A stretch of 64,000 nt of DNA from an uncultured Acidobacteriaceae bacterium. Lineage in GTDB: Bacteria > Acidobacteriota > Terriglobia > Terriglobales > Acidobacteriaceae. This document shows positions 6,770 through 64,000 of this stretch, piece by piece. Position 1 is the first letter of the stretch, and each line of letters opens with the position of its first letter. The stretch spans positions 325,022 to 389,021 of the forward strand of contig CAVVBW010000003.1 in assembly GCA_963746665.1 (NCBI GenBank), read 5' to 3'. The position numbers were made by a program, and so were the translations under genes. Under the pieces are notes generated by a model, which was not told where the DNA came from, did no database searches, and worked only from the letters and a program-made list of their open reading frames with translations.

Positions 6770-6825
6770 GATGATTTCCTTTCCCGGTGGCGCGAGGTCG
6801 CGCTTACCAGAATTCGAGATTACAT

Positions 6826-6868: not shown

Positions 6869-6887
6869 GATATTTGTAAGAGGTGTT

Positions 6888-7520: not shown

Positions 7521-7750
7521 ATGAACGGTCTTGGGTGCCCCTGTTGCAATCCCCCAAATGCCGGATCACCTTCCTCCTAAGCCCCCAGGAAATGCCGTGT
7601 TCCGCGCTGGGTCAGACCCGGCAAACCAGATATCGAGTCTCCAGCTTTACTGGCCTCTCGTGCCACCAGAAGGGCTACGGCCTTGGAAAAGTGGTGAGTC
7701 CTGGTACTCCACGGGCATACCTCCAACGACTCCTAAGTAGACAGAAGCTG

Positions 7751-15416: not shown

Positions 15417-15608
15417 CACGCTGGAACGCTCCTCGTACACCGTACTGGGCCGTCAGGCGCTTACTACTCAAATGAACCGATACCAAATAGACGTCGCGAC
15501 CCCGCAGAAGTTTATCGCGATGTCGTCCTTGACAGAGAACGGGCGCTGGAGGCGGCGCTCTCCTTTCCTGGGAGCGTTTTCATTTCAATTCTCCCTGACC
15601 CATTTTTC

Positions 15609-23577: not shown

Positions 23578-24930
23578 GTGCCTCTGCACCACAGCATCGA
23601 CGGCGTTACCTACGCCTTCCGCGACCTCAAGGACCTGCTGGCCAAGGCGACACCCGCGCGCTCTGGCGACGAACTTGCCGGCATTGCCGCCCGCAGCTCG
23701 GTCGAGCGCGTCGCCGCCCAGATAACCCTTGCCGATCTGCCTCTGTCCGTTTTTCTCAACGAAGCTGTCGTTCCTTATGAGAGCGACGAGGTCACGCGCC
23801 TTATCTTCGACACGCATGACCCTTCCGCGTTCGCTCCCGTTGCCAGCCTCACCGTTGGTGAATTCCGCGATAAGCTGCTCGCGCACGACACTACCGGCGA
23901 ATCGCTTGCCGCCCTCTCACCCGGCCTCACACCGGAGATGGCCGCCGCTGTCTCCAAGCTTATGCGGGTGCAGGACCTGATTGCCGTCGCCCGTGAGATT
24001 CACGTCGTTACCCGTTTTCGCACGACCGTGGGCTTGCCGGGACGCCTTTCCACGCGCCTGCAACCTAACCACCCCACCGACGATCCTCTGGGAATCGCGG
24101 CTGCTCTCATCGACGGCCTGCTCCTGGGTTCGGGAGACGCCGTTATCGGCATCAACCCCGTTCAAGACAGTGTCGCCGGCACCAAATATCTTCTTCAACT
24201 CCTCGATGCCGTTCGCGAACGCTACTCCATTCCGACCCAGAGCTGCGTCCTCGCCCACATCACCACTCAACTTGCCGCGCTTCAGCAAGGAGCACCCATC
24301 GACCTGGTCTTCCAGTCCATCGCCGGCACGGAGTTAGCCAATGCCTCCTTCGGCATCAACCTTGCTCTTCTCGATGAAGCCCACCATGCCGCCCGCGAGC
24401 TCCACCGAGGCACTGTGGGCGGCAATGTGATGTACTTTGAAACCGGACAGGGCAGCGCTCTCTCTGCGAACGCCCATCATGGCGTCGACCAGCAGACCTG
24501 CGAGGCCCGCGCCTACGCTGTCGCGCGCCGCTTCTCCCCCATGCTTGTCAACACCGTCGTTGGTTTCATCGGCCCGGAATACCTTTACGATGGCAAGCAG
24601 ATCCTCCGCGCGGGCCTCGAAGATCACTTCTGCGGCAAACTCCTCGGCCTGCCCATGGGCTGCGACGTCTGCTATACCAACCACTGCGAAGCCGACCAGG
24701 ATGACATGGACACGCTCCTCACTCTTCTCGGCGCCGCCGGCGTCAATTACATCATGGGCGTTCCCGGCGCCGACGATGTCATGCTCCAGTACCAGAGCAC
24801 CTCCTTCCACGATGCGCTCTACCTACGTTCTATCCTCGGCCTCCGCCCCGCCCCCGAGTTCGAAGCATGGCTCAAAAGCGACCTTTCCGGCCGGCTTCTG
24901 CTGCCGACTCAGATACAATCGCTCCTCTGA
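23578..24930 (+). CDS. eutB: ethanolamine ammonia-lyase large subunit
   Basis: GTG start. The N-terminus ...VTYAFRDLKDLLAKATPARSGDELAGIAARSSVERVAAQ parallels the known EutB N-terminus. 450 aa. Confidence 0.9.
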   Translation: MPLHHSIDGVTYAFRDLKDLLAKATPARSGDELAGIAARSSVERVAAQITLADLPLSVFLNEAVVPYESDEVTRLIFDTHDPSAFAPVASLTVGEFRDKLLAHDTTGESLAALSPGLTPEMAAAVSKLMRVQDLIAVAREIHVVTRFRTTVGLPGRLSTRLQPNHPTDDPLGIAAALIDGLLLGSGDAVIGINPVQDSVAGTKYLLQLLDAVRERYSIPTQSCVLAHITTQLAALQQGAPIDLVFQSIAGTELANASFGINLALLDEAHHAARELHRGTVGGNVMYFETGQGSALSANAHHGVDQQTCEARAYAVARRFSPMLVNTVVGFIGPEYLYDGKQILRAGLEDHFCGKLLGLPMGCDVCYTNHCEADQDDMDTLLTLLGAAGVNYIMGVPGADDVMLQYQSTSFHDALYLRSILGLRPAPEFEAWLKSDLSGRLLLPTQIQSLL

Positions 24931-24945
24931 GAGCTGACAAAGCCT

Positions 24946-25755
24946 ATGCGCCGTCTCCCATCGACTCCTCCTCTCGGCCTTCGCGATTTCACTCCCGCCC
25001 GAGTATCCCTGCCCGCTACCGGCCATAGCATCGTCACCAAGGAAGTGCTCAATTTTCAGCTTGCGCACGCGCAGGCGCGCGATGCGGTGCATAGGCCTTT
25101 TCACTTGTCCGCCTTCGCAGAGCGGCTTCAGGCTGAGCTCGTCAACCTCGCCCCAGCTTCTATTCCCATCCTGCAGCTTCGGACCAATGCGTCCGACCGT
25201 GCCGCGTATCTCCGCCGGCCTGATCTTGGCAGGACCCTCCACCCTGACTCCGTTGCCCAGCTTCAGCCAGGCTCTTATGATTTGGCGATTACCATCGCCG
25301 ATGGCCTTTCTGCTCTCGCCGTCGAACGCCACGCCATTCCCCTGCTCGCCCATCTTCTTCCGCAACTCCTCGCCGCAGGCTGGACCATCTCCCCACTCGC
25401 TCTGGTGGAACAGGGCAGGGTCGCCATCGGCGACCCTATAGGTGGCCTTCTCGGAGCCAGCCTCAGCCTCGTCCTCATCGGCGAACGCCCCGGCCTCTCC
25501 TCGCCCGACAGTCTTGGCGCCTATCTCACCTGGCGCCCACATCCCGATCGCACCGACGCCGACCGCAACTGCCTGTCCAACATCCGCCAGGGCGCTCTTT
25601 CGCCGGAATCTGCCGCGGCCCGTCTCTTCTGGTACCTTCAGGCCGCCCGCACAAGGCAACTCACCGGGACCGCGCTCAAGGAGGGGACGCTCGAAATCGA
25701 AGACACTGCTCCATCGGGTCCATCGGCCGCATCGGCTCCATCGGCCGAAGGCTAA
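24946..25755 (+). CDS. eutC: ethanolamine ammonia-lyase small subunit
   Basis: Starts 15 nt after eutB. 269 aa. DFTPARVSLPATGHSIVTKEVLNFQLAHAQARDAV matches the EutC pattern. Confidence 0.85.
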   Translation: MRRLPSTPPLGLRDFTPARVSLPATGHSIVTKEVLNFQLAHAQARDAVHRPFHLSAFAERLQAELVNLAPASIPILQLRTNASDRAAYLRRPDLGRTLHPDSVAQLQPGSYDLAITIADGLSALAVERHAIPLLAHLLPQLLAAGWTISPLALVEQGRVAIGDPIGGLLGASLSLVLIGERPGLSSPDSLGAYLTWRPHPDRTDADRNCLSNIRQGALSPESAAARLFWYLQAARTRQLTGTALKEGTLEIEDTAPSGPSAASAPSAEG

Positions 25756-28958: not shown

Positions 28959-29762
28959 ATGCGACACACGGCAATAAAATTACTGCTCCTCATCCTTTGC
29001 TCGAGAACTGCAGTTGCTATCAATAGCCCGAACTATGCTGCCGGACGCGGGGCAGACGATGCGGCGGGTGTTGAAATCTCGGTTGCAGCGCCCGATGGGC
29101 TGAATGCTGTCATGACGGAAGTGGCGCAAGCATTTGAGGAGAAAACTGGCCTCCACGTCCGTCTGACGTTTGCGGATTCTGCCAGCCTATATTCACAGAT
29201 CTTAGACGGTGCGATTTTCGACGCGGTTTTTTCGGCGGACATGCAGGACGTTCGGCGGCTGACTGCTTCACGTGCGGTGGTTGCCGCTTCACTCACGGAA
29301 TATGCTCGTGACGAACTGGTGATGTGTATTTCGCCGGTCGTGCGCTTTCAATTTCCGCCTGGGAATCCATTAGTGGCTCTGAGAGATAAGACGATCTCTC
29401 ATATTGCGATACCCGATCCGCAAAAAACGGCTTCTGGCAAAGTTGTAGAGGATGCTTTGAAAGCGGGCGGGGATTATGACTTAGCAGTACGAAGAAAAAT
29501 CTTGATTGGGAAAGACAACTCGGAGGTCGCGCAGTTTGTGGAGCATGGGGATGCGGATGTGGCATTGCTCCCGATGACCGCAGCACGCGCCTCCGGACTT
29601 TATGGGGCGCGAGTGATTCCGATTCCCCCGCGCCTTTATCCGCCTATCCGGATGGAAGCAGTGGTGATCACGCGATCGAAGCGTCGTTCAGAGGCGCTTA
29701 AGTTTCTGAGGTTCGCCGCTTCTTCGGATGGGAGAGCCATATTTCGCCGGGAAGGCTACTGA
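28959..29762 (+). CDS. modA: molybdate ABC transporter periplasmic binding protein (solo, no modBC nearby)
   Basis: 267 aa with a signal peptide. ISVAAPDGLNAVMTEVAQAFEEKTGLHVRLTFADSASLYSQILDGAIFDAVFSAD matches the ModA N-lobe pattern. Confidence 0.75.
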   Translation: MRHTAIKLLLLILCSRTAVAINSPNYAAGRGADDAAGVEISVAAPDGLNAVMTEVAQAFEEKTGLHVRLTFADSASLYSQILDGAIFDAVFSADMQDVRRLTASRAVVAASLTEYARDELVMCISPVVRFQFPPGNPLVALRDKTISHIAIPDPQKTASGKVVEDALKAGGDYDLAVRRKILIGKDNSEVAQFVEHGDADVALLPMTAARASGLYGARVIPIPPRLYPPIRMEAVVITRSKRRSEALKFLRFAASSDGRAIFRREGY

Positions 29763-29810
29763 GGGCGTCTGACGCAAGGCGCTCGGCCCCAGTCGAGGTC
29801 CTCACCGTTA

Positions 29811-29898
29811 CGCAGGATCTCCTGTCCTTCATCCGTGAAGATTCCGGACGAAGAACAGGGGGCTGCAACGGGTTGTTTCCCGTCGTCTTGCCGCTAGA
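29811..29898 (+). repeat. 88-bp direct repeat, copy B
   Basis: About 83 of 88 identical to 28815-28902. Lies 48 nt after the modA stop. Confidence 0.9.
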
Positions 29899-29910
29899 TC
29901 AAAGAGCCGC

Positions 29911-30153
29911 TCAGGCGCAGCGAGTCATTTCGATACGCGGTTGGATCGGGCTTACCCGGTCGGGCCCCAGCGTACCGCCGAGAATCTGGGCCACATTCAA
30001 CAGCGACTTACCGCCGCAAACCGGACAGGCATTGTTGTAGGAAATCGTGATCCGGTCGCAGTCCACGCATAAAACAGCACACGAGAGGGGAAGACTGGGC
30101 AGGAACGCAGTTGCCGCGTCCTCGCCCGGATAAAGTTCATTCATGTTGTTCAT
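29911..30153 (-). CDS. small Cys4 zinc-ribbon-like hypothetical protein (80 aa)
   Basis: ORF 29911-30240 trimmed to ATG 30153, downstream of AAGGAG. The CxxC pairs CVDC ... CPVCGG are spaced 13 residues apart. Confidence 0.5.
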   Translation of the reverse strand: MNNMNELYPGEDAATAFLPSLPLSCAVLCVDCDRITISYNNACPVCGGKSLLNVAQILGGTLGPDRVSPIQPRIEMTRCA

Positions 30154-30558
30154 GGCTCCGTGACTCCTTAAAAAACTGGCCAAGGTGAAGCCGTCAACTA
30201 CTGTGGTGAAAATGTGGTGAAAACGCGCTAGCTGAATCATCGACCATTCGAGCCAAGGCAGCTAGTGACTGTTATGACATCTTGCGATTTTTTTTGTTCA
30301 AAACCCATCCCTTGAACTACCGATCAGACAGAAAAGACAGAAAAAGGAAAGACAGAATCGAAGATGAGAGGCCCGCTGCGAAGCAGCCATCCTCATTCTA
30401 TGGATGCAAGATTCGGCACTGGGAGAGTGATCGGCCCGCGATCAATTTTCTTGGGGGAGATGCAGGGCGGTTCCGCGGCGGCGGCTATGCCAGCCCTTTT
30501 GGGCAGCTATCTCCTTGAAGAAAAAGCCCTTCTGCTCAGCCGAATGGAAGATGACGGT

Positions 30559-47249: not shown

Positions 47250-48044
47250 ATGGCTGAGAAGATAGAGGCTACCTATTTCGTCGATCGAACCGCCGAGGCG
47301 CTTGCCCACCGGACAGCCCGGTACATGGTGGACCGGGTGGTGGAGGCGGTCGCTGCCCGCGGGCGCGGACGCATTGCAATCTCTGGCGGCGGAACGCCGC
47401 GGCGCACCTTTGAGCTGCTCGCCGAGGCTCCCTATCGTGAGCAGATGCCGTGGGAAAACCTCGATCTTTACTGGGTGGATGAGCGCGCCGTGCCGCCCGC
47501 GAATGCGGACAGCAACTACCGCATGACCCGCGAGGCATTGCTCGACAAAGTGCCATTGCGCGAAGAGCAGATTTTTCGTATTCACGGAGAGCTCGATCCG
47601 GAAAAAGCCGCGGCGCAGTATGAGTCCGACATCCGCCGCGGCTTCCGCCTGGAGGGGGCGGAGAAGCCTGTCTTCGATTCGATCTCTCTTGGCATGGGGC
47701 CCGACGGGCACACGGCCTCGCTCTTTCCCCACACCGCCGCGCTCGATGAGATTGTGCGTATTGCCGTCGCCAACCACGTTCTTACCCAGAAAGATGCTTG
47801 GCGCGTAACGCTGACCTGGCCGGTCATCAACCAGGCGCGCGACGTCTTCTTCCTCATAGCCGGTGCGGACAAGGCGAAGCCGCTCGCGGGCGTTCTTTCG
47901 GGAGCCTACAATCCTCAGGAGCTGCCGTCGCAGCTGATTCGGCCTAAGAGCGGTCGCCTGACCCTGCTGCTCGATCAAGCTGCGGCCTCTCTTCTGCCGC
48001 AACCGGATGCGGACGGAGTGGGCAGACTGGGGATTGTCCGATGA
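47250..48044 (+). CDS. pgl: 6-phosphogluconolactonase
   Basis: ISGGGTP and LGMGPDGHTASLFP motifs. Confidence 0.9.
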   Translation: MAEKIEATYFVDRTAEALAHRTARYMVDRVVEAVAARGRGRIAISGGGTPRRTFELLAEAPYREQMPWENLDLYWVDERAVPPANADSNYRMTREALLDKVPLREEQIFRIHGELDPEKAAAQYESDIRRGFRLEGAEKPVFDSISLGMGPDGHTASLFPHTAALDEIVRIAVANHVLTQKDAWRVTLTWPVINQARDVFFLIAGADKAKPLAGVLSGAYNPQELPSQLIRPKSGRLTLLLDQAAASLLPQPDADGVGRLGIVR

Positions 48045-49099
48045 TTCTGGCGGGGGATGTCGGCGGTACGAAAGTTGAGTTGGCCCTGTACACGTTTGAA
48101 CGTGGGCAACTTGTGCAGCTCCATGAAGGGAAGTTCGCGGCAAAGGAGTTTTCCGGGCTCGAGCAGATTCTCAAGAAATTCCTTAAGGAAAGCGCGATCA
48201 CGACAGCCGAGCGGGCAAGTCTGGTCGCCGCTTGCTTTGGCGTGCCTGGCCCGGTGCGCCAAGGGCGGCTCAAGCTCACCAATCTTCCCTGGGAGCTCGA
48301 CAGCCGCCAGCTCGCGGCCGATCTCAAGATCGAACACGTCTATCTAATTAACGATCTCGAGGCCAACGGATATGGCATTGCCGAGCTGGCCCCGGAAAAA
48401 ATCTCTTTCCTGGCGAAGGGCGACCCGGGAGCCCGGGGAAATCGCGCATTGATGTCCGCCGGTACCGGTCTGGGCGAGGGCATGCTGATTTGGGATGGTC
48501 ATGTTCACGTTCCCACGGCCTCCGAGGGTGGACATGCGGATTTCGCCGCGCGGACGGACGACGAGATCGAGCTGCTGCGTTACCTGCGGAAAAAGCTCCA
48601 GGGACGGGTGAGCTACGAGCGCGTGATCTCCGGGATCGGCCTATCGAATATCTACTCGTTCTGCCGCGATGTGAAGCGGATGGAAGAGCCAGGCTGGCTG
48701 AAGGATCGGATGCTCAAGGAAGATCCGAATGCCGTAATTGGCGAGCTTGCCGTGGAAGGCGGCAATGATCTTTGCGTCAAAACGCTCGATATCTTTGTTT
48801 CCGCCTACGGAGCCGAAGCAGGTAACCTGGCGCTCAGAACCCTTGCCGTGGGCGGGGTCTATCTTGGCGGGGGGATCGTGCCCAAGATCCTGACAAAGAT
48901 GAAGGACGGCGCTTTCATGGCGGCGTTCGTGGATAAAGGGCGTCTCAGTGAGTTGCTGGTCAAGACCCCGGTGTGCATTATTCTCGACGACAAAGCGGCT
49001 TTGATCGGCGCCGCGGCTTATGCCGAAGCGCGCGCGGCCGCCATCAGCGGACACTCCGAACGCGCTGCCTCCTCGGCTGCGGACGTAGAGCCCTCTTGA
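48041..49099 (+). CDS. glk: glucokinase
   Basis: ILAGDVGGTKVELALY ATP-binding motif. ATGA overlap with the pgl stop. Confidence 0.85.
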   Translation: MILAGDVGGTKVELALYTFERGQLVQLHEGKFAAKEFSGLEQILKKFLKESAITTAERASLVAACFGVPGPVRQGRLKLTNLPWELDSRQLAADLKIEHVYLINDLEANGYGIAELAPEKISFLAKGDPGARGNRALMSAGTGLGEGMLIWDGHVHVPTASEGGHADFAARTDDEIELLRYLRKKLQGRVSYERVISGIGLSNIYSFCRDVKRMEEPGWLKDRMLKEDPNAVIGELAVEGGNDLCVKTLDIFVSAYGAEAGNLALRTLAVGGVYLGGGIVPKILTKMKDGAFMAAFVDKGRLSELLVKTPVCIILDDKAALIGAAAYAEARAAAISGHSERAASSAADVEPS

Positions 49100-49171
49100 C
49101 AACTCCCCGTCCTGGTCGCATCTTCGTTTCAACGCAATACAAAAGGAACACAAAGAGAGGGTTTGCTCGAT

Positions 49172-49555
49172 ATGCCTCCAGTCCATAGACAGTCCATGCC
49201 TCGATTGGCCGCCGTCGTTGTTGTGCTTTTTGGGCTCATGGCGCTGATGCCGCGAGCCGCCTTCGCACACGCGGTCCTGGTGACTTCGACACCCAAGGCG
49301 CAGAGCACCGTCAACGGCCCCGACCTCGATATTGTTCTCACCTACGATTCGCGAGTCGATGCGGCCCACTCGAGCGTGAGCTTGCTCATGCCCGATGGAA
49401 AGGTGAAGGCGCTCGTCATCGGCCCCCAATCCGCGCCCGCGTTGTTGTCCGCCAAGGCGACCGGCCTGACCAAGGGAGCCTATGTCCTGCGCTGGACCGC
49501 GCTCTCGAGTGACGGCCACATTACCCGAGGCGAGATCGCGTTCAATGTACAGTAG
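49172..49555 (+). CDS. copC: CopC-domain periplasmic copper-binding protein
   Basis: Signal peptide ending AAFA followed by HAVLVTSTP. GAYVLRWTALSSDGHITRGEIAF matches the CopC pattern. Start is ATG 49172, or TTG 49163. Confidence 0.8.
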   Translation: MPPVHRQSMPRLAAVVVVLFGLMALMPRAAFAHAVLVTSTPKAQSTVNGPDLDIVLTYDSRVDAAHSSVSLLMPDGKVKALVIGPQSAPALLSAKATGLTKGAYVLRWTALSSDGHITRGEIAFNVQ

Positions 49556-49583
49556 TTCCGAGGACCTCTCCGCCCTGATAAAA

Positions 49584-49633
49584 ATTGTCATTCCGACCGG
49601 AGCGAAGCGAAGTGGAGGAACCTGCGTTTTTTT
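49584..49633 (+). repeat. short dispersed element ATTGTCATYCCGA..GCGAAG..GAGGNAYCTGCG-T-run, copy 1
   Basis: ATTGTCATTCCGACCGGAGCGAAGCGAAGTGGAGGAACCTGCGTTTTTTT. A related copy lies at 54541-54580. Confidence 0.7.
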
Positions 49634-49673: not shown

Positions 49674-51290
49674 TTGATCTGGCTACTGCGCGATCTCGAT
49701 CTACTGAACGTGGTGTTGCGGGCGGCGATGCTCTCCTTCGAGGCATTGGTGCTCGGGGGCGTGGCATACCTGTGGTTGGTAGTCCTCCCCGCCAAGGCGG
49801 GCGCGACTGTCGAGCGCGTCTGCCGGAGGGGCATCGTCTTGGCGGCGGCCGCCTTGATCCTCAGCGAGGCCGCGGCGATCGCGGCCTCGAGCGCGATGCT
49901 GATGGCCGGCTCCAGCCTGCGGTTGAGCGACCTTGTCACCACCAAATTTTTTCTTGCCGGGTCGGCGGCCATCCTGACTGCCCTTTTGCTGGGGATTTCG
50001 GCCCGCGTGGGCGGCAGAAAGGCGCTTCTGGCGATGCCGCCGCTGAGCCTGCTCCTGCTCGCGGCCGCGGTCTCGACCAGCCACGCGGTTGCGCGCTTCG
50101 ATCACCGCGTGTTGTTGGCGGTTCTTACTGCGGCACATCATCTAGGCACGGCTGCTTGGATCGGAGCCATGCCGTTCCTGCTCATCTCGCTCGCCCGCGC
50201 GCCGGGCGTCGAGGAGGCGCGCCGCATGGTCAGGCGCTATTCCCAAATGGCGCTGCTGAGCGCTTCTACGCTCATCCTCGCGGGAATCGGACTCGCATGG
50301 TTCTATGTGGGAGCATGGAGCGGGCTGTATGGCACCGCCTATGGCGTCCTGCTGCTGGCCAAGATCTATCTGCTGCTGGTCATGATGGCGCTCGGCGCCG
50401 GCAACTGGTTCCTTGTGCGGCGGTTGAACACCGATCCCGAACCATTGCTGGCGCAGGCTGCGGCGTTTTGCTGAAGCGGAGATCGGGCTGGGATTTACCG
50501 TGGTGCTCGTCGCGGCTTCACTGACCTCTCAACCCCCTTCAGTGGACGTGGTGCAGGATCGGCTAACGCTGCCGGAGATCTATGCGCGCATGCATCCCAC
50601 CGTTCCCCGTCTGAGCAGCCCGCCGGCAGTCGCGCTCACCCCTGCCACGTCGATGGCCGTGGCCATTCGGGACAGCGAGTTCGAGCCTATGGCGGAGAGC
50701 GATGCCAATGACCGCGCCTGGTCGGAGTACAACCATCATTGGGCGGGCTTGATCGTTCTGGCCGCCGGGTTCTGGCCCTGCTCAGCCGGCTGCGCGCGCT
50801 CCGCTGGGCGCGCTTCTGGCCATTGACCTTCGCCGGGCTGGCGGTTTTTATCGTGCTGCGGGCCGATCCGGAAAATTGGCCCCTGGGTCCGCGTCCCTTT
50901 TGGGCCAGCTTCTCCGCCCCGGATGTCTTCGCGCATCGCGCCGCGGCCTTGCTGATCCTCTGCTTTGCCGCCTTCGAGTGCGCGGTGCAGGTGGGCAAGC
51001 TGCATGCGAAGTGGGCTACGCTGCTCTTTCCCGCGATGTGTGTCGTGGGCGCTGCACTCTTGCTGACGCATGACCATGTCACCCAAGACCTGAGAGAAGA
51101 GTTGTTCGCGGAGCTGAGCCACACGCCGATCGCTTTGCTTGGCGTGACCGCGGGCTGGGCACGTTGGTTGGAGCTGCGCCTGCCCAAAGATCATGCAGAC
51201 AGAGGTCGGGCGGCAAGGTTTGCCGGCTATCTTTGGCCCCTGTGCTTGGCCGCGGCCGGCTTGATTCTGCTGAATTACCGGGAGACCTGA
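49674..51290 (+). pseudogene. copD: CopD-family membrane protein with extra C-terminal membrane domain, split over three frames
   Basis: Frame 1 (49674-50474) ends ...LNTDPEPLLAQAAAFC then stop. The conserved continuation LRRFAEAEIGLGFTVVLVAASLTSQPP is in the +1 frame, which opens at 50428. A second shift near 50770 joins ...NHHWAGLIVLAAG to VLALLSRLRALRWARFWPLTFAG... (frame of ORF 50739-51290). Confidence 0.8.
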
Positions 51291-54580: not shown

Positions 54581-55013
54581 TTCTGTCCCGGTCGCAACCC
54601 TTGGGGTGCCCCATCCTTGACGAAGTCAAGGGTGGGAGACCATTGCACAGGTGCGAGACTCACGCTCCCCCCAGCTTGTGCCGGTGAACCAACAACGGGC
54701 GCGAATCGCCGCGCCCGGTCTTCGCCGTGCTACGTGCTAGCGGATGCGCGCCCGTCTGCGCCTCGTTCCAGCCCGCGTTAGTTTCTCCCTAATCATTCAG
54801 TTACCTCGGTACTCAGAGCGGACGAATGTGGAATTTTTTGTCCAAATACTGGCTGTATAATTCGCTCACGCTCCCCCGTTGTCGGCTGCATATGATTCGG
54901 CCTCGAACCAGGCAGTAAAGGGCGCATTCATGGCATCCAACGATTTGCCTACGAGTAGGCCACCCCGGCTTTACTTCACAACATCAGTGACTCGACGCTA
55001 ATGAGGAGTGCCC

Positions 55014-57545
55014 ATGTCCCCGACCGCCCGGAAACGTCTTACTTGGAAGAACAAACTCTCTCGGTTGCCATTGCTGGGATTGACGCTTTGCGCTACCGCC
55101 GCATTCGCCGCAGCGCCTACGGTTCCTACGGTCGTTGTGGACGTGCAACTGACCGATCCCGCGGGATTGAACAGTCCGCAGAGCATCGTTCTTGCCCCGG
55201 ACAATATGATCTATGTCGCCAATGCGGGGGCCAACCAGGTCATCGGGTACCCGGCCCACAGCGCCAACGGGACACCAATCAGCACTGCACCGTATACGCT
55301 TGTTTCTCCCAATGCTCTCGCGGTCGACTCGTCGGGTGACCTCTTTATCGGGGACAGTCCAATCGCTGGAACGGGACGCGTCCTTGAAGCCATGGCGACC
55401 AACGGCCAACTGAACGGCACGGTGAACCTAGTTGTGTCGGGGCCGCCGCTCCAAGACGTTACCGCCCTTGCCGTCAATGCAACAACCAATACTCTCTATG
55501 TTGGCGATGACCTTTCGAACGCGATTTACACAGTGGCTTCCGGCAGCCATACTCCTGTGAAGCTCGATCTTACCGGCGTTCCGGCCGGCATCATTCCCGC
55601 GGCGCTGGCCTTCGACAGTACCGGCAACCTGTATATCGCCGACTTCCTGACGACGCTCTACGAACTTCCAGCAGGAGGTACCTTGGCTGCCCAGACCGTC
55701 GTCGCGCCTGGGTTCGTCTTGAACTCTCCCACAGGGTTGGCTTTCGACAGAAAGGGCGATCTTTACATCCTGACGCTGGGAGTTCCCTTCGGGACCACCG
55801 GCGGGACTCCGGCAGAGCAGATTGTGGAGGTCCCCGGCGAGGATCTGGCCAGCGCCTTTCTGGTTCCGCTAAACAGCGTCGGCAACGGAAGCGGACTGGC
55901 GACCGACACCGAAGGCAACTTGTATGTGACCGATCTCAACTCGGGCGATATCGTCGCGTTGTTCTACGGCTCACCCGTCGATCTCTACGACGCGGGCGTG
56001 GGCGCCGTTGGCTCCGCAGTGGCCTTCAACTATGAGTTCAATGCGGCTGTAACCTTGAGAGGGTTCAAGTTCGTTTCCGAGGGCGATACCAGCACAGAAG
56101 TCGTGGACCAAGGCGGCACTTGCAGCAACGGAAAATATACGGATGGAAACAATGGCGGCCCCATCTCGCCGTCCAATCCCGCCCTCTGCCAGGAGTCCTT
56201 TGCAGCACAACCGGCCTATGCCGGACTTCGCAACGCGGCTGTCGAATTGAGGAGCACCGGCACCACGATTCTTAACACCACGCCCGTATATTCGGTCGGC
56301 ACGTCGGGGGCAAGCGTGGTCTACCCATTGACCGCATCGGCGGGAGCCACAGTCAATACGCCCGAGGGCTTGGCGGTCTCCGGGCTGGACAAGAAGCTGT
56401 ATATCGTCAACGCGGCAGCCGGTGCGCCGTCGATCCTTTCCGCCAACGGGCCCGATGGAAAGACGCTTACCACGGTCAATACCAGTGGAATTCTTTTGGG
56501 AATCCCGTATGGGCTCGCTATCAATGGAGCCGGAGATCTGTATGTTGTCGATTTTGCCTACAGTCTCCTTGACGTGATACCGGCGGTTTCCGCGCAGACT
56601 CCCTACAGTGTGAACCCAGGCAACCTTCTGCAACATCCGCTTTCGGCGGCCTTCGATTACTTCGGAAACCTTTACATCGGAGACTCCGGGCCTGATGGTT
56701 CAGGTGCGGACGCCGCCAATCCTGGATACATTGTGGAGGTTCCGGCCGACGGGGGCGCGCCGTTCAAGGTCAATACGGGTGCGATCACTGTCATCTATCC
56801 GCTGTCCTTGACGACCGATCCATATACAGGGGATCTTTATATCGGCGATGGCGGCGACCCCACCGAGGCTGGAGCGGAGGTAGTGAAAGTTGCAGCGGCT
56901 ACCGGCGCGGCCACTGTGGCGTTGCCCACCTGCCCTGGCACCGTCACCGTGGCGACGCCCTCCTGCATAACCCAACCCGTAGGCCTCGCCTTCGATCCGG
57001 CCGAGCAACTTTACGTACTCGATCAGAATCTGGATTCCATCGCCGTGCTTCCAACAGGTGGCACGCCGTACCTGCTTCCCTTCGACAACAGCTTGTTTAC
57101 CATGCCGGTCGGGTTGGCCATTACCAGCGGCGGCCAGAGCCTGGTCGAATCGAATGTCACCACTTCGACGAGCAACAGTATCGTCTACCTCAACGGCCTG
57201 GCATCTCCGCTTGCCTTCGGGTCGGTTACAGAGGGCCAGCATAGCAGCACTCTAACGGCTACGGTCAACAACATCGGCAATCTTCCGTTGATGTTGGAAA
57301 CACCCTATTACACCTCCAGCAGCACGACGGCGCCCTTCGACATCTTGGGCAGCTCGACATGCGCAGACGGAGTTTCGCTCAATCCCACGGTCACCTGCGC
57401 CATCAACGTCCAGTTCGATCCCACTGGCACGGGAAGCTCGACCGACAACCTGACGCTGAGGACCAATGGATATAACAACGGCGAATCGGTCATCAACTTG
57501 AGTGGAACCGGAACACGCACCACCTCTATCGTCAGGGGCAGATAA
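55014..57545 (+). CDS. large secreted NHL-repeat beta-propeller protein with C-terminal choice-of-anchor-D/ASH-like domain
   Basis: ATG 55014 lies 5 nt after GAGGAG. Signal RLPLLGLTLCATAAFAA. Many NHL-type units (SPTGLAFDRKGDLYI, GLATDTEGNLYVTD, GLAINGAGDLYVVD). The C-terminus LAFGSVTEGQHSSTLTATVNNIGNLPLML...CAINVQFDP fits an ASH-like beta-sandwich. Confidence 0.8.
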   Translation: MSPTARKRLTWKNKLSRLPLLGLTLCATAAFAAAPTVPTVVVDVQLTDPAGLNSPQSIVLAPDNMIYVANAGANQVIGYPAHSANGTPISTAPYTLVSPNALAVDSSGDLFIGDSPIAGTGRVLEAMATNGQLNGTVNLVVSGPPLQDVTALAVNATTNTLYVGDDLSNAIYTVASGSHTPVKLDLTGVPAGIIPAALAFDSTGNLYIADFLTTLYELPAGGTLAAQTVVAPGFVLNSPTGLAFDRKGDLYILTLGVPFGTTGGTPAEQIVEVPGEDLASAFLVPLNSVGNGSGLATDTEGNLYVTDLNSGDIVALFYGSPVDLYDAGVGAVGSAVAFNYEFNAAVTLRGFKFVSEGDTSTEVVDQGGTCSNGKYTDGNNGGPISPSNPALCQESFAAQPAYAGLRNAAVELRSTGTTILNTTPVYSVGTSGASVVYPLTASAGATVNTPEGLAVSGLDKKLYIVNAAAGAPSILSANGPDGKTLTTVNTSGILLGIPYGLAINGAGDLYVVDFAYSLLDVIPAVSAQTPYSVNPGNLLQHPLSAAFDYFGNLYIGDSGPDGSGADAANPGYIVEVPADGGAPFKVNTGAITVIYPLSLTTDPYTGDLYIGDGGDPTEAGAEVVKVAAATGAATVALPTCPGTVTVATPSCITQPVGLAFDPAEQLYVLDQNLDSIAVLPTGGTPYLLPFDNSLFTMPVGLAITSGGQSLVESNVTTSTSNSIVYLNGLASPLAFGSVTEGQHSSTLTATVNNIGNLPLMLETPYYTSSSTTAPFDILGSSTCADGVSLNPTVTCAINVQFDPTGTGSSTDNLTLRTNGYNNGESVINLSGTGTRTTSIVRGR

Positions 57546-57565: not shown

Positions 57566-57602
57566 GAAAAACAGCCGGGGCCATGCTCCGGCTGTTTTTT
57601 TT
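57566..57602 (+). terminator. rho-independent terminator (bidirectional architecture)
   Basis: AAAAACAGCCGG-GGCCATGCT-CCGGCTGTTTTTTTTT, 20 nt after the NHL gene stop. The GC-rich stem CAGCCGG/CCGGCTG is flanked by an A-run and a T9 run. Confidence 0.85.
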
Positions 57603-57962
57603 CGAATCCGCACAGGTCCCCGAATTGATACGAAGCTTGCCTTTCGGCAGAGGCTGTGCATTGAGCAATCTTCTCGGTGTTCCCCGCAGAACGTGACAGC
57701 CGTAGGTCTCTGCGACAATGACCCGCGCAAGCAGGGAACCGGGATTCCGGGCTATCGCGTCTACTCTCCGGATTCGCTTGGCAAACTCAGCTTCGATTCC
57801 TGACAGACCTTTCCTGACGGTGCCTGGCACACTGCGGAAGAACGGAGGTCGCGGCTTTTCCTAAAGATCGGGCTCCCCGACGAGCCTGGGGTTGGCTCGC
57901 TGGCGTGGAAGTAAAGCCGCACTTCACTAAATCTTCCAGTGCACAGTAGCAGTGAAAATGCT

Positions 57963-58835
57963 CTAGGCGACCGTGCCCAAGCACCAGGTCAATGTTGCAT
58001 TTCCGGCCCCGGCATCCATCTGGTAGCTGCCAGTTCCGATTACCTCGCATCCGCCGCAGCGCATCAGTGTTGCCAACGACTGCTCCGAAAAGTAGTTGAT
58101 GTGTTCGTGCATCAAGTAGAGGCTGGCAGGGCGAAGCACGTGGCGAGCCAGGCCGGGGTGCGTCAAAGCTACGACCCCGAGTTGCGCGACCCTCCTGAGG
58201 ATCCTGGCCGGCCCGAATGGCGACTCGCGAGGAACCTCCAGGAACACCGTGCTTCCAGATGGGGCTGCCTTCACGATATCTTCCACCAGGAGACGTGGAA
58301 AACCGACATGCTCAAGTACATTGCTGTTGATAACGAGGTCGGCTTTGCATTCCGCCGGATCACTGGTCGCGGTCACCCCGTCAACAGCGGGAATGCCGGA
58401 AATGTCGTAGACGAATGCCGCTGCACCGTCTACTAGCCCACGCACTAGGTCGCCGCGGTCGCCGCCATAATCGAGGACGCGTCGTATCTTCCGTTCGCCG
58501 ACGTGCTGGCGAAGTATCGCGGCAAGTATCGAACGGCGGCGTTCGTAAGCGGTGTGCGAGGCCAGGCCGGCGTTGAACTTGACCGTGTACCACGGCTCCG
58601 AGGCGCAGCGCATTCGCTGATACTCTTCAGATCGGTATCCCGCGTAGAGACGAGCCGCCTCCCCGTCGTCAAGACGCGGATTGTAGAACATGAATCCGCA
58701 AGCTTGACACCGCACCACGGCGACCGAAAATGGCGTTCGATTCCATATCCGTTTCGCCAAAAACGGAGAAACGAGCGCCATGCGAAGTTTGCGAATCTCT
58801 CCATCACACACCACGCACTTGGAAACCTCAATCAT
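57963..58835 (-). CDS. class I SAM-dependent methyltransferase with N-terminal Cys4 zinc ribbon
   Basis: ORF 57963-58919 trimmed to ATG 58835 (AGGAAAGAG SD). CVVCDG...CQACGF zinc ribbon. Motif I VLDYGGDRGD. Confidence 0.8.
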   Translation of the reverse strand: MIEVSKCVVCDGEIRKLRMALVSPFLAKRIWNRTPFSVAVVRCQACGFMFYNPRLDDGEAARLYAGYRSEEYQRMRCASEPWYTVKFNAGLASHTAYERRRSILAAILRQHVGERKIRRVLDYGGDRGDLVRGLVDGAAAFVYDISGIPAVDGVTATSDPAECKADLVINSNVLEHVGFPRLLVEDIVKAAPSGSTVFLEVPRESPFGPARILRRVAQLGVVALTHPGLARHVLRPASLYLMHEHINYFSEQSLATLMRCGGCEVIGTGSYQMDAGAGNATLTWCLGTVA

Positions 58836-59028
58836 CTCTTTCCTCGATGTAGAACTGGCTGCATTGCGGGAAGCGGCACGAGCCCCGCTTTGGTGGCGGG
58901 TCTCGCCCGTGGCGCCCAATCAATATCCGGGGATTTATGCAACCAGTTCTAGCCAAATCTACCAGATTTGCAGAGCTCGCACGCCTCCCAAACGTTGCCT
59001 TTCACTCGAGCCTAAGAGACAATTTCGT

Positions 59029-59727
59029 ATGCATCTCGAAGCCCTCCGCTCCGCTGTGCTCGAGGCCAATCTTGAACTCGTCCGCCGTGGGCTGATCCTC
59101 TATACCTTCGGCAATGCCAGTGGCATTGACCGGGAGAGCGGACTGGTGGCCATCAAGCCGAGCGGTGTGCCGTACGAAGATCTGAAGGCCGCCGACCTGG
59201 TGCTTACCGACCTTGACGGCCAGATCGTCGAGGGTACGCTGCGTCCTTCGTCCGATCTGGCAACGCACGTGTTGCTTTACAGAGCTTTTCCGGCGATCGG
59301 CGGTGTCGTCCACACCCACTCGGAGTTCGCCACGGCCTGGGCGCAAGCCGGGCGGGAGATCCCCGCCTACGGTACCACTCACGCCGACTACTTTTACGGC
59401 CCGGTGCCCGTCACCGAAGAGTTGACCGCCGAAGAAGTTGGCGACGATTACGTTCTGAACACGGGCCACGCGATCGTGCGGCGGTTCAGCAAGCTCGACC
59501 CGCTCGCCGTTCCGGCTGTGCTAGTCGCCGGTCACGCTCCATTCTGCTGGGGGCCGACGCCGGCCGATGCGGCGCACAATGCTGTCGTTCTGGAGGCTGT
59601 TGCGCGAATGGCCTACTACACAACGACCTTGAACGCGGCATGCTCAGGCGTGGGCCAGCACTTGCTGGATCGCCACTATTTCCGCAAGCATGGCGCTGGC
59701 AAGACCTATGGACAGTCGAAGAGCTGA
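59029..59727 (+). CDS. class II aldolase/epimerase, L-ribulose-5-phosphate 4-epimerase-like
   Basis: ORF 58780-59727 trimmed to ATG 59029 (233 aa). YTFGNASGIDRESGLVAIKPSGVPYEDL, PSSDLATH and GGVVHTHSEFATAWAQ closely follow the AraD pattern. Confidence 0.8.
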   Translation: MHLEALRSAVLEANLELVRRGLILYTFGNASGIDRESGLVAIKPSGVPYEDLKAADLVLTDLDGQIVEGTLRPSSDLATHVLLYRAFPAIGGVVHTHSEFATAWAQAGREIPAYGTTHADYFYGPVPVTEELTAEEVGDDYVLNTGHAIVRRFSKLDPLAVPAVLVAGHAPFCWGPTPADAAHNAVVLEAVARMAYYTTTLNAACSGVGQHLLDRHYFRKHGAGKTYGQSKS

Positions 59728-59831
59728 TGGCAACTCCGTCATTATGCCTGCGCGCCGTTCGCTCGCAGCGATTCCTTGTCTGGCCCCATTCTGGCTGGCA
59801 ACGCTGTCCACGCTATAAGCCCATAACAACT

Positions 59832-60506
59832 CTAACGCTTCATGGCAAGACACTGCTGCCCGGAAAGCGGAAGGAAGGCTTCTGGCTGGTTTGAGAAAAA
59901 TTGCTGGAACGCCATTACGACTCCATTGAGTTGCGGATAGTCGTGAGAAAGAAGGATGCCGCCTGCATTCATCCGGGGCCAAAAGAAACCGAGTGCCGCC
60001 AGAGTCCCATCGTATAGGTCCATATCGAGATGCACGAAAGAGAATCGCAGGTGCTCGGCGAAATGACCGGTGTCCTCGGGAAAAAGACCCGGATAGAGCG
60101 TGATGCGATCTTTATAGCCTGCGAGGGTCTGCGCAACTTTCTCCCGAGAGCCGGCATACTCGCCCTGCTTGAGAAAATCTCCGGCTTCCGGCAACCCCGC
60201 GAAGGTATCGAAAAGGTGCAGGTGTTTGCCGTGCGAGGCATTGAGCATGACGGCGGCGCTGCCCCCGAGGTAGACCCCCACCTCAGCCATTTCGCCGGGA
60301 ACCTTCTGCGTCGCCTGTACAGCGTTGTGGAGTTCTATGCACTCCAACGGTGTCGTTGCGGTATAAGCCAGCGATCGCGCCTTCGTAATGCTCTTGAGGG
60401 CTGCGGCGCGGTCTGGATGCCGATAATTGGTCAGCCCGAAATGCAGCTTGCTTACCGCAACGTGAAAGCCCATCTGGAGTCGTGATTTGAAGAAATTGAG
60501 CGTCAT
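59832..60506 (-). CDS. TylF/MycF-family (macrocin-type) O-methyltransferase
   Basis: PGEMAEVGVYLGGSA, FVHLDMDLYDGT and GGILLSHDY match the TylF-family metal and SAM motifs. Confidence 0.75.
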   Translation of the reverse strand: MTLNFFKSRLQMGFHVAVSKLHFGLTNYRHPDRAAALKSITKARSLAYTATTPLECIELHNAVQATQKVPGEMAEVGVYLGGSAAVMLNASHGKHLHLFDTFAGLPEAGDFLKQGEYAGSREKVAQTLAGYKDRITLYPGLFPEDTGHFAEHLRFSFVHLDMDLYDGTLAALGFFWPRMNAGGILLSHDYPQLNGVVMAFQQFFSNQPEAFLPLSGQQCLAMKR

Positions 60507-60671
60507 TGCGCACCACTATATCACTCTCGGCACTCCTCGTTGCTCGCACTCGGGAGAATCCGCTACCGCCGCCGCCACACTATAGGTCCATAACACGCTC
60601 CACGATGTGACCTCAATTTCTGGCTTGGTAGAATTAGCGGTATTTAGGCACCGAGACCAAGGAGCACTTTT

Positions 60672-62178
60672 ATGCAAGATTTGAAGAAGCGGCCACTATT
60701 CATCTATGAAATGGCCAACAACCACATGGGCGATGTGGAGCACGGGATCCGCATAGTTCGGGAACTCAAGGAAGCTTCTAAGGGTTTCCCTTCGGATTCT
60801 GTGTGAAGTTGCAGTACCGTGACATCGACAGCTGTATTCATCCGGACTACCAGGGACGGTAAGACCTGAAGTATGTGAAGCGTTTCTCGGAAACGCGCCT
60901 GAGCTGGGAGCAATACAAGCAGATCAAGGACGCGATCGTCGATGCTGGATTTCTCTCGATGTGTACACCGTGGGATGAGCTGTCTGTCGACATGATTGTG
61001 GAGCATGGCTACGATTTTATGAAGGTGCCGAGCTGCTACATGGCGGACTGGCCGCTTCTCGAGCGCGTCGCCAAGTACGATCTGCCGATTGTCGCCTCGA
61101 CCGCAGGCGAGCCTTTTGAGGAGATCGACCGGGTGGTGAGCTTTTTCCGGCATCGCAATAAATCGCTGGCGATTATGCATTGCGTAGGCGAATATCCCTC
61201 GCCTGACGAGCACCTGCATCTGAGCCAGATCTCTCTGCTGAAGAAGAGCGTATCCGGGAATCGAGGTGGGCTACTCGACGCACGAACGGCCCGACAACTT
61301 TGCAGCGGTGAAGATTGCGATTGCGTTGGGGGCGACGCTGTTTGAGAAGCACACAGCAGTTGTGACCGAGAAATATGCGGTCAACACTTACAGCGCGACA
61401 CCTGACCAAGTGCGCAAATGGTTGCAGTCGGCCGCGAGTGCCCTGACGATGATTGGGGAGACGGCCAAGCGGTATCCGGCTCCTGCAGGCGAGGCGCAGG
61501 CTCTGCGCGACCTGGCGCGCGGCGTGTTTGCCAAGAAACCGGTCGCGGCTGGCGAGGTGGTGAAGCCGGACAATCTTTTCTATGCCATGCCGAATCTGCC
61601 AGGCCAACTAGTGGCGCAAGATCTGTCCAAGTACACCGAGTATGTGGCGATCGGTCCGATCGCATCCAATGGCCCGGTGATGGAAGCGAATGTGAAGAGG
61701 AGCGACCGGCGGCAGGAGGTTCTCGACATCGTGCGGGACGTGAAGGCACTCATCAAAAGGAGCAAGGTGCAGGTGCCGGGACAGTGCGAGCTTGAGATTT
61801 CGCACCACTATGGCATCGACAGATTCCGCGAGAGTGGACTGACGGCGATTACGGTTGTGAACCGCGACTACTGCAAGCGGCTTATGGTCGTGCTGCCGGG
61901 ACAAAAGCATCCCGAGCAGTGGCACAATTATAAGAATGAGACTTATCACATCCTGCACGGTGACGTCACCGTGGACTTGGGCGGCGCGAAGACGGCGCAC
62001 AAATCGAATGACATCGTGACCATTCCGCATGGCATCAAGCACTCTTTCTGGACAACCAACGGCGCGGTGATCGAGGAAGTATCCTCGGCTTACGCCGCAG
62101 GCGGATTCCTGGTATACGGATGAGTCGATTATGGCCAATCCAAACCGCAAAACCTTCGTCACCTATTGGCTGGAATAA
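60672..62178 (+). pseudogene. NeuB-family sialic-acid-type synthase fused to SAF and a sugar-isomerase-like cupin; four lesions
   Basis: ATG 60672 follows AAGGAG and gives MQDLKKRPLFIYEMANNHMGDVEHGIRIV...KGFP. There is a frameshift at about 60781-60803 into GFPFGFCVKLQYRD. An in-frame TAA lies at 60860-60862. A frameshift at about 61241-61252 leads into YPGIEVGYSTHERPDNFAAVKIAIALGATLFEKH. A frameshift at about 62088-62100 leads from EEVSSAY into ADSWYTDESIMANPNRKTFVTYWLE, whose TAA (62176-62178) overlaps the next ATG. Confidence 0.8.
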
Positions 62179-62727
62179 TGCGGACGATCGTCTGGGATGT
62201 GGACGACGTGTTGAACGACCTGATGTATCAGTGGTTTTCGCGGAGTTGGAGACAGGATCACCCCGCCGTGCGCGGTGGAATATGCAGGGCTGACGAGAAA
62301 ATCCTCCACACGTTTCGCTTGGCGCGACGCCGAGGAATATCTGGCTTCGATGGATGCTTTCCGCAAGACCGAGGCGGGCATTCACCTCACGCCGAATGCC
62401 GAGGTGCTAGAGTGGTTTGCGGTGCATGGCGCCAGATTTCGCCATATTGCGCTGACCGCGCGCCCGTTGGAGACGGCTCCCGAGGTCGCTGCGTGGGTCA
62501 TGCGGCACTTCGGTGCATGGATCCGATGTTTTGGCATCGTTCCGACGCGTACAACAGACGGGGTTCCAGTATACGACCGCGGTAAGGGAGATTACCTTCG
62601 CTGGCTGGGCAAGGGCGATGTGCTGATAGACGATGCGCAGGAGAATTTGCGGCAAGCGGCTGCGATCGGCATGAAGACTTTTGCCTGGCCTCAACCCTGG
62701 AACGATTCGCCAGCTGACCGCCGCTGA
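62178..62727 (+). pseudogene. HAD-like (deoxyribonucleotidase-type) phosphatase with a frameshift
   Basis: ATG 62178 gives MRTIVWDVDDVLNDLMYQWFSRSWRQDHPA (DxDD motif I). The sensible continuation VEYAGLT...RHIALTARPLETAPEVAAWVMRHFGAWIRCFGIVP...VLIDDAQENL...PQPWN is in another frame (ORF 62275-62727). The lesion lies near 62262-62272. Confidence 0.75.
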
Positions 62728-62763
62728 GATTCTGCAGGCACTCACGAATATGGCAGGCGAACC

Positions 62764-64000
62764 TTGATTAAACTATCAGACTACGTCACGCAATTTCTGG
62801 CTCATCGCAACCTCAGGCATGTATTCATGTTGACCGGGGGCGGCTGCATGCACCTGGTAGATTCCTTTGGCCGCCAGGAGGGGATGGAATATGTTTGCTG
62901 CCTGCATGAGCAGGCAGTTTCTTTTGCCACCCAGGCCTATGCGGAGTACACGAGCGACTTGAGCGCCGCTCTGGTAACGACGGGGCCCGGGGGCACCAAT
63001 GCCATGACCGGTCTGGCGGCTGCGTGGCTGGATTCGACAGCGTGCCTCTTCCTCTCCGGGCAGGTAAAGCGCGCCGACCTTTTGGCCGGACGCGGCGTGC
63101 GTTCGATGGGGCCACAGGAGATAGACATTATTGCCGTTGTGTCTCCGCTGACCAAGTACGCCAAGACCCTGGTCGAGCCGAACGATGTTCGTTACGAGCT
63201 GGAAAAGGCCGTCTATCTGGCGACAACGGGACGGCGCGGCCCGGTATGGCTGGATTTCCCGCTAGACGTGCAGGCAGCGATGGTGGACCAGAGCAAGCTG
63301 CGCGGATTCGTCCCCGAACCGGTTGCCGATGCGAGCGCCGGCATCAGGCAAAAGGTTGCCGCGGCTATCGAGTTGCTTAAAAAGGCGGAACGCCCGGTGT
63401 TGCTTGTCGGCAACGGGACCCGGCAGGCCCACCTGGAAGGATTGGTGGAAGACACGGTGAACCTGTTACAGGTTCCGACACTGCTGACATGGAAGTCCAT
63501 GGACATGCTGCCGGAGAACCATCCATATTTACGCCGGCCGGCCCGGATCAATCGCTTCTCGTGGATCCAACTTTACGCAACAGAATGCCGACTGGATTAT
63601 GGTGCTGGGGGCGCGGCTGGACATGCCGCAGATTGCGTTCAGCCATAAGAATTTTGCCCGAGGCGCAAAAAAAGTGCTGGTGGATGTCGATGCGAACGAG
63701 ATTCGGAAGTTCGATATGACTATCGATGTGGCGGTCCATGCGGATGCCAAGGACTTTCTGCGCGAGCTGCTCGCTCAGTTGAAGAACACCGTGCTGCCGC
63801 ACACGCCGGCATGGCTGAAGAAGGCGAAGGATTGGTTGACCAAGTATCCCGTGATTTTGCCGGAGTATTGGCAGGAGGACAGGGGAGTCGTCAATCCCTA
63901 TCTTCTGGTCGATGTGTTGTCGGAACAATGTACGCCGGAGGATGTTCTTGCTCCCGGAAGTTCGGGAGCGTGCAGCGATATCTTCCTGCAGTGCTTCCGA
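62764..64000 (+). pseudogene. thiamine-diphosphate-dependent enzyme (acetolactate synthase large-subunit-like / YerE-like), frameshifted, 3' end beyond the window
   Basis: TTG 62764 gives MIKLSDYVTQFLAHRNLRHVFMLTGGGCMHLVDS...TTGPGGTNAMTGLAAAW...LPENHP. This frame then runs into a stop at 63648. The conserved continuation YAGRPGSIASRGSNFTQQNADWIMVLGARLD...VLVDVDANEI... is in another frame and stays open to 64000. The lesion lies near 63524-63533. Confidence 0.75.

Follow-up and report, generated by a model that had tools for sequence, protein, structure and literature searches.

Positions 57963 to 64000 of a 64,000-nucleotide stretch of DNA (hereafter the window) from contig CAVVBW010000003.1 of an uncultured Acidobacteriaceae bacterium carry a gene for a NeuB-like synthase fused to SAF and Cupin_2 domains, followed by genes for a putative HAD-superfamily phosphatase and a YerE-like thiamine diphosphate (ThDP)-dependent carboligase. 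As judged from these sequences and their relatives, the three genes form a widespread module that probably builds a long-branched deoxy-sugar. All three are disrupted in the window, and an initial annotation made from the DNA letters alone had described a half-decayed, nonulosonate-like biosynthesis cluster. We consider it quite probable that the decay is only apparent and consists of single-base errors in the consensus of a long-read (probably Nanopore-only) assembly of metagenomic data. Artefactual lesions in a real module for a presumed branched sugar are, taken as a whole, the best explanation and in our judgement a likely one. The features of the segment are listed below.

57963 to 58835, minus strand: S-adenosylmethionine (SAM) methyltransferase with an N-terminal Cys4 ribbon; intact; Pfam Methyltransf_23 (PF13489), E=1.8e-13.

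59029 to 59727, plus strand: AraD-type class II aldolase/epimerase; intact; Pfam Aldolase_II, E=5.5e-47.

59832 to 60506, minus strand: TylF-family O-methyltransferase; intact; Pfam TylF (PF05711), E=2.1e-16.

60672 to 62178, plus strand: fusion of NeuB-like synthase, SAF and Cupin_2; family length 501 amino acids; disrupted in the window.

62178 to 62771, plus strand: putative HAD-superfamily phosphatase, NT5C-like; 196 amino acids in relatives; disrupted in the window.

62764 to 64000, plus strand: YerE-like ThDP-dependent carboligase (TPP enzyme); about 600 amino acids in relatives; disrupted, and truncated near residue 412, where the window stops.

60787 to 63527, no strand: patch of divergence between the window and a short-read contig (L001), holding 45 substitutions and all indels.

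Lesions were called in an alignment of the window with L001 and five more distant relatives (seven sequences in total). Ten were found, all of them in the window only: seven 1-bp insertions, two 1-bp deletions and one TAA codon. The NeuB-cupin gene has a 1-bp deletion after 60790, the TAA at 60860–60862 and 1-bp insertions at 61249 and 62097. The HAD gene, whose start overlaps the stop of the NeuB-cupin gene (TAATG), has 1-bp insertions at 62269, 62294, 62709 and 62756 and a 1-bp deletion after 62330, and the TPP gene has a single 1-bp insertion at 63527. Undoing the nine indels yields a NeuB-cupin open reading frame (ORF) of 501 amino acids, with the TAA codon still in place, a HAD ORF of 196 amino acids, and a TPP frame that is open for at least 412 amino acids up to the window end. 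At the site of the stop codon, four of the five relatives have TAC (Tyr) and the fifth has TTC, while L001 has CAA (Gln); TAA is one step from TAC and from CAA alike. Its first base is that of one codon and its last base that of the other, which is what mixing two haplotypes column by column would give. Inspection of the window ORFs in several reading frames confirms that the three co-directional module genes are disrupted and that the three flanking genes read through, both as initially annotated; the number of lesions had been put at six and is corrected here to ten.

The contig L001 (5.9 kb, short-read run ERR10755945) was found by exact-protein look-up of the TylF gene. It has the same genes as the window, with an intact NeuB-cupin gene of 501 amino acids and an intact HAD gene of 196. 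Over 57595–60786 (3.2 kb) there are zero substitutions between window and L001, and from 60787 onwards the 45 substitutions and all the indels begin. By our estimate about 18 differences would be expected in the identical flank at the synonymous divergence of NeuB, and none is seen, which indicates a sharp haplotype boundary. The sole difference in this 3.2 kb concerns an intergenic T run at 57594, T8 in the window and T9 in L001. A second contig of the same short-read run is 100% identical to the window over 47693–49615.

Like the lesions, the substitution pattern inside the patch is observed directly. Between window and L001, synonymous changes number 12 in the NeuB-cupin gene, 11 in the HAD gene and 5 in the TPP gene. 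The NeuB-cupin gene has no missense change and one nonsense change, the HAD gene has a further 14 changes that are mostly conservative, and the TPP gene has 3 that are nonsynonymous. At the sites at which the proteins repaired from the window are unlike those of L001, they have the family-consensus residue at 8 of 14 HAD positions and at 3 of 3 TPP positions. The substitutions and the consensus residues together indicate that the underlying module sequence is a normal selected allele, with the indels laid on top of it. Since the lesions sit in a 2.7-kb patch in which co-occurring strains differ, the organism's own module genes are most likely intact.

Bacterial pseudogenes typically have mixed indel lengths, a bias towards deletions and substitutions that far outnumber indels. 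Here all nine indels (9 of 9) are 1 bp long, seven of them are insertions, and they come with at most one disruptive substitution, far from the usual ratio, whereas general knowledge of natural decay would lead one to expect a deletion bias and a range of sizes. Relaxed constraint was likewise not found, given the 12 synonymous and 0 missense changes in NeuB and the consensus residues in the HAD and TPP proteins. The initial annotation had proposed the recent loss of a surface-glycan pathway, and a very recent inactivation of the module in this strain, as a strain-variable loss of surface-glycan decoration, would explain why ten lesions are concentrated in three functionally linked genes with intact neighbours. 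Glycan loci are commonly strain-variable, this locus lies at a haplotype boundary, and exactly this haplotype was not found intact in the collection searched. Against such a loss stand the uniform, insertion-biased 1-bp indels, the absence of missense changes in NeuB, the agreement of the repaired proteins with the family consensus, and the recurrence of the same signature in unrelated genes of the window and in sister assemblies, at sites that differ between assemblies. On this evidence we regard real loss as rather unlikely and the lesions as looking like consensus errors. Were the decay real, it would amount to a single instance of a surface sugar lost at strain level.

The unrelated genes in question are three. 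An SDR gene at 4312–5098 (minus strand) runs over three frames, with two shifts near 4829 and 4660. Compared with L089, one of two sister long-read contigs in ENA with Flye-style names that are 98–99% identical to the window (the other is L090), the window is short of bases in this stretch at 4446, 4665 and 4829 and has 22 substitutions in 500 bp. An alpha/beta hydrolase gene at 5920–7000 (minus strand) has one extra base in an A/T run at 6484, the run being shorter in L089. The gene for a CopD-like membrane protein at 49674–51290 (plus strand) is likewise split among three frames; one shift is near 50455 and the other, at a GGG run, near 50770. A CopC gene at 49163–49555 adjoins it. Altogether, frameshifts affect 6 of about 58 genes in the window (the gene total is estimated), more pseudogenes than is plausible in a soil bacterium that lives freely. 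At 23578–25755 (plus strand), two neighbouring intact ORFs (450 and 269 amino acids), which we take to encode the EutB and EutC subunits of ethanolamine ammonia-lyase, indicate that most of the window reads cleanly. The clustering of lesions in the module run is real, with 9 of at least 14 window indels falling within 2.75 kb of the 64 kb, but disruption is not peculiar to that run, in view of the three frameshifted genes elsewhere.

Sister assemblies show the pattern in yet other genes. The M16 peptidase gene, an intact ORF of 957 amino acids in the window (12567–15440), is fragmented by many 1-bp insertions in both L089 (13096–15955) and L090 (4945–8178). These insertions lie inside a patch of raised substitution and are mostly at different sites in the two contigs. 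In two further contigs, L086 and L087, which share their NeuB-cupin protein, 21 kb are identical apart from a 1.5-kb patch. About 10% of the positions in this patch are substituted and 6 alignment columns contain indels, and it breaks rfbF and rfbH in L087 only (6014–8323). The closest GTDB genomes to the window are metagenome-assembled genomes of the Microflora Danica project, the best having 85% DNA identity. Microflora Danica assemblies were built with Flye from Nanopore reads alone and polished once with Medaka (PMC12313526). The attribution to consensus errors draws on the uniform 1-bp length of the indels, on unrelaxed constraint, on their place where strains diverge, and on a like pattern in other genes and sister assemblies.

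Two indel sites fall in short runs (CCC at 60788–60790 and GG at 62755–62756), as would suit programmed frameshifts or phase-variable switches that control expression of the glycan genes. Most sites, however, are outside any repeat or slippery sequence, three genes with nine switches between them could never have every switch in phase at once, and the homologues have none of the nine indels. Programmed frameshifting and phase variation were rejected on the mostly non-repetitive sites and their absence from homologues, and we consider them vanishingly improbable. The explanation by consensus errors, for its part, has several points to its discredit. Most of the insertions are outside homopolymers, unlike the classic Nanopore signature, and the stop codon is a substitution and not an indel. 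Inside the patch L001 is a different haplotype and gives no intact copy of the window's own. No exact match to the repaired HAD protein, whether residue 51 was given as H or as R, or to a NeuB protein with Tyr64 was present in the collection searched, which we treat as neutral. The sequencing origin of the window is something we infer. The lesson suggested in practice is that 1-bp frameshifts that cluster in a long-read metagenome assembly mark a patch where strains are heterogeneous, and pseudogenes should not be called there without read support.

The lasting value of the locus lies in the intact conserved module and not in the lesions. Its phyletic spread takes in Acidobacteriota, Verrucomicrobiota, Proteobacteria, Bacteroidota, Nitrospirota, Omnitrophota and bacteria of the candidate phyla radiation, and Occallatibacter savannae AB23 is a carrier that has been cultured. 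Adjacency was counted in 80 loci from many phyla, with one genome per species. In 70 of the 80 the NeuB-cupin gene is followed within 1.2 kb by a TPP gene, and in 43 a HAD gene stands between the two. Neighbouring genes were searched for in 88 sequences, namely 87 loci (a few of them duplicate fetches) and the window. An RfbF-like cytidylyltransferase was found in 61 of the 88, an RfbH-like dehydrase in 57 and a dehydratase/epimerase in at least 54. In the relatives that were tested, these enzymes pass the equivalog cut-offs for RfbF glucose-1-phosphate cytidylyltransferase (434.7 bits versus 300.25), RfbG cytidine diphosphate (CDP)-glucose 4,6-dehydratase (474.1 versus 278.45) and RfbH (731–740 versus 423). 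Genes of the GtrA, GT2, GT87 and Methyltransf_23 families often follow the module in the annotated neighbourhoods (L082, L083 and L086). Exceptions are the window and its closest clade, in which the module and the methyltransferases are present with no rfb genes nearby.

Pfam profile searches, in which the frame-repaired proteins were included, upheld all the gene families initially assigned. In the fusion protein, Pfam recognizes NeuB (E=3e-40), SAF (E=3.8e-05) and Cupin_2 (E=8.4e-08) domains. The repaired protein scores 138.6 bits against Pfam NeuB (PF03102; cut-off 22.1), and falls short of the equivalogs for NeuB (TIGR03569; 121.6 versus 399.65) and PseI (TIGR03586; 113.4 versus 340.25). 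By these profile scores the NeuB part falls outside the true sialic and pseudaminic acid synthases and belongs to a separate subfamily, for which a structure has been solved (PDB 3g8r). Homologues of the fusion number 4977, and the best 120 are nearly all 501 amino acids long. Among 81 sequences from many phyla, the NeuB motifs ANNH, MHCV.EYP and G.STHE are invariant, and so are H418, K421, E423 and H456 in the cupin. The cupin domain is above the cut-off for Cupin_2 (32.3 versus 27.2) and below that for Lyx_isomer (17.7 versus 20.8), and is weakly like D-lyxose and mannose-6-phosphate isomerases, with matches to PDB 2y0o (E=1.1e-04) and to the mannose-6-phosphate isomerase model TIGR01479 (E=9.7e-05).

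The HAD protein has motif I (DVDDV) at residues 7–11 and LIDD near its C terminus. Its scores are just below the cut-offs for Pfam NT5C (22.7 versus 24.8) and NCBIfam HAD-IA (21.2 versus 29.4), and the search gave no PDB relative. The window part of the TPP enzyme matches Pfam TPP_enzyme_N and TPP_enzyme_M, and the orthologue in L004 has all three domains (N, M and C). Of the solved structures, that of the YerE-like enzyme JanthE (PDB 8rph, E=2.9e-113) is the closest match to the TPP enzyme, and the next is at 1e-73. A true ilvB identity was excluded by failure against the acetolactate synthase equivalog (316.9 versus a cut-off of 538.35). Both results agree with the YerE-type assignment made in the initial annotation.

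We propose, with slightly better than even confidence and by analogy with characterized YerE-like systems, that the NeuB-like and HAD enzymes make a 3-deoxy-2-ulosonic acid, which the YerE-like enzyme grafts onto a CDP-ketosugar as an acyl branch. The chemical steps, every one of which we infer from gene families and their conserved adjacency, would run as follows. The cupin domain would provide an aldose or aldose-phosphate, which the NeuB-like domain would condense with phosphoenolpyruvate (PEP) to a 3-deoxy-2-ulosonic acid or its phosphate, and the HAD enzyme would then take off the terminal phosphate. RfbF, RfbG and RfbH would make CDP-4-keto-3,6-dideoxyglucose, the presumed acceptor of YerE. 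The YerE-like enzyme would decarboxylate the 2-keto acid and add the resulting acyl-anion equivalent to C4 of this acceptor. A reductase and O-methyltransferases, the TylF and Methyltransf_23 proteins of the window among them, would finish or decorate the branch, and GT2- and GtrA-type enzymes would export the sugar to a surface glycan. NeuB-type enzymes, too, yield a 2-keto acid, in their case a 3-deoxy-2-ulosonic acid built from PEP and an aldose. That the NeuB-type enzyme forms the donor is suggested by its near-invariant place directly upstream of the YerE-like gene. The YerE-like proteins ErwE, MMAR_2332 and MygE use as donors hydroxylated C4–C8 2-keto acids that are made by a neighbouring aldolase (PMC9306805). 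Their proposed physiological acceptor is CDP-4-keto-3,6-dideoxyglucose, the in-vitro assays having used ketone analogues, and the products are the long branches of erwiniose, caryophyllose and gastriose (PMC9306805).

A different fate for the product of the NeuB-like enzyme has to be weighed, in which a free nonulosonic acid of the ketodeoxynonulosonic acid (KDN) type would be made as the 9-phosphate, dephosphorylated by the HAD enzyme, activated with cytidine monophosphate (CMP) and transferred, with the TPP enzyme acting on a separate substrate. The Pfam NeuB match and the SAF domain fit this scheme, as does the weak likeness of the cupin to mannose-6-phosphate isomerase (TIGR01479, E=9.7e-05). 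The pairing of a NeuB-type synthase with a HAD phosphatase also resembles the established routes through KDN-9-phosphate and N-acetylneuraminic acid (Neu5Ac)-9-phosphate. The scores, however, are far under the NeuB and PseI equivalog cut-offs, the HAD gene is not adjacent in 37 of the 80 loci while the TPP gene is adjacent in 70, and the conserved partners are genes for CDP-3,6-dideoxyhexoses. No CMP-sugar synthetase (CTP_transf_3) was found among the called genes of the three annotated neighbourhoods (L082, L083 and L086) or in window segment 57963–64000, and the same holds for hexosamine-processing genes in both places. A free nonulosonate therefore appears quite improbable. The earlier view that this is not a textbook sialic acid locus is upheld; the missed equivalog cut-offs, the lack of a CMP-sugar synthetase in those neighbourhoods and the conserved partners RfbF, RfbG and RfbH speak against calling it nonulosonate-like.

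The proposal that the module makes an acyl branch for a CDP-ketosugar faces objections of its own. Neither rfbF, rfbG nor rfbH is present in the 64-kb window, nor within 10 kb of the module in the closest relatives (L002–L004, L011 and L025). The putative YerE-like class is assigned by comparison with JanthE and not with YerE itself, and the module TPP enzymes are 33–38% identical to JanthE. The cupin presumably keeps part of the metal motif of D-lyxose isomerase, with Gln in place of the first His of HxH. The literature covered, which did not include an in-silico survey of over 200 YerE-like clusters that PMC12247030 cites, gave no link between NeuB-type genes and YerE-like enzymes.

Extending the proposal, we suggest tentatively, and with less than even confidence, that the NeuB-cupin and HAD proteins supply 3-deoxy-2-ulosonic donors of an estimated eight or nine carbons, and that Acidobacteriota and members of many other phyla may make acyl-branched 3,6-dideoxyhexoses of about 13 to 15 carbons. 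If true, this would add a new branch to the acyl-branched-sugar scheme in thousands of genomes, with sugars that have not yet been described. Most predicted YerE-like enzymes have no known sugar structure to go with them (PMC12188165, PMC12247030). The module offers a concrete candidate donor for such enzymes and predicts undescribed higher-carbon branched sugars in soil bacteria.

The three flanking genes had been grouped with the module as a six-gene cassette. Six adjacent genes are indeed present, but the AraD-type gene is probably outside the conserved module. Its product exceeds the cut-off of the NCBIfam model for AraD-type L-ribulose-5-phosphate 4-epimerase (NF006047; 334.9 bits versus 257), and it adjoins the module in only 3 of 81 loci (L001, L003 and L067), a rarity on which it was rejected as a core member. 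The TylF O-methyltransferase is well above its family cut-off (PF05711; 60.4 bits versus 23). An identical protein is encoded on L001, and homologues are found downstream of the module in L002, L004 and L025. The 290-amino-acid product of the Cys4-ribbon methyltransferase gene equals that of the gene called on L001, and 15 of the 88 searched sequences have homologues close to the module.

Upstream of these genes, 55008–57545 (plus strand) encodes a large secreted NHL/beta-propeller repeat protein. Propeller proteins (Lactonase, SGL and NHL profiles) are found at 5442–8673 of L004, on the same side of the module as in the window. At 15834–20364 of L004 the module is followed by arsenic-resistance-like genes, which encode an ArsC-type low-molecular-weight phosphatase, a Methyltransf_31 protein, an SBF/Acr3-type transporter and a pyridine nucleotide-disulphide oxidoreductase; their position beside the module is probably adjacency only. 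Searches of the 64-kb window gave no tRNA or Rfam matches. The stretch 29200–30500, where such matches are likewise absent, has low coding potential and no convincing ORF.

Among the closest known proteins, the relative of the NeuB part is 3g8r, deposited as "probable spore coat polysaccharide biosynthesis protein E", a name that assigns no specific function. It is of the same subfamily, aligning with fusion residues 6–342 (E=7.2e-121), and is up to 65% identical to betaproteobacterial members. It differs in that the deposited chain, of 350 residues, has no cupin domain. JanthE of Janthinobacterium sp. HH01 (PDB 8rph, 8rpi and 8rpj) is a YerE-like ThDP carboligase that aligns over its full length with the module TPP enzyme. 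It has the ThDP motif CDG where the module enzyme has GDG, and at 33–38% identity it was discounted as an orthologue. JanthE accepts short to long 2-keto acids as donors and ketones as acceptors, and its physiological substrates are unknown (PMC12188165).

The nonulosonic-acid pathways (NeuB/NeuA, PseI, LegI and KDN-9-phosphate synthase) share with the module a NeuB TIM barrel with a SAF domain and a phosphatase gene (putative in the module) that directly follows. A PEP-dependent condensation is likely in both, the motifs MHCV.EYP and G.STHE being conserved in the 81 sequences. The module differs in its C-terminal cupin, its NT5C-like HAD enzyme and its NeuB and PseI scores, which are below cut-off. 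The module neighbourhoods examined, in contrast to these pathways, have no CMP-synthetase and no genes for processing uridine diphosphate N-acetylglucosamine (UDP-GlcNAc).

The closest parallels are the YerE-type clusters for yersiniose (Yersinia pseudotuberculosis), erwiniose (ErwE/ErwI/ErwJ), caryophyllose (MMAR_2331/2332) and gastriose (MygE/MygI) (PMC9306805). In these clusters a YerE-like ThDP enzyme stands beside an enzyme that makes a functionalized 2-keto acid, as we presume for the module. RfbF, RfbG and RfbH, a reductase-family gene, SAM methyltransferases and glycosyltransferases are alongside, as they are in relatives of the module; the window itself is without CDP-sugar genes. The principal difference lies in the donor-forming enzyme. 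Whereas the known clusters use a pyruvate aldolase of the BphI/HpaI or citrate-lyase type, the module would use a presumed PEP-dependent NeuB-SAF-cupin synthase and a HAD phosphatase, which implies a longer, polyhydroxylated 3-deoxy-ulosonic donor.

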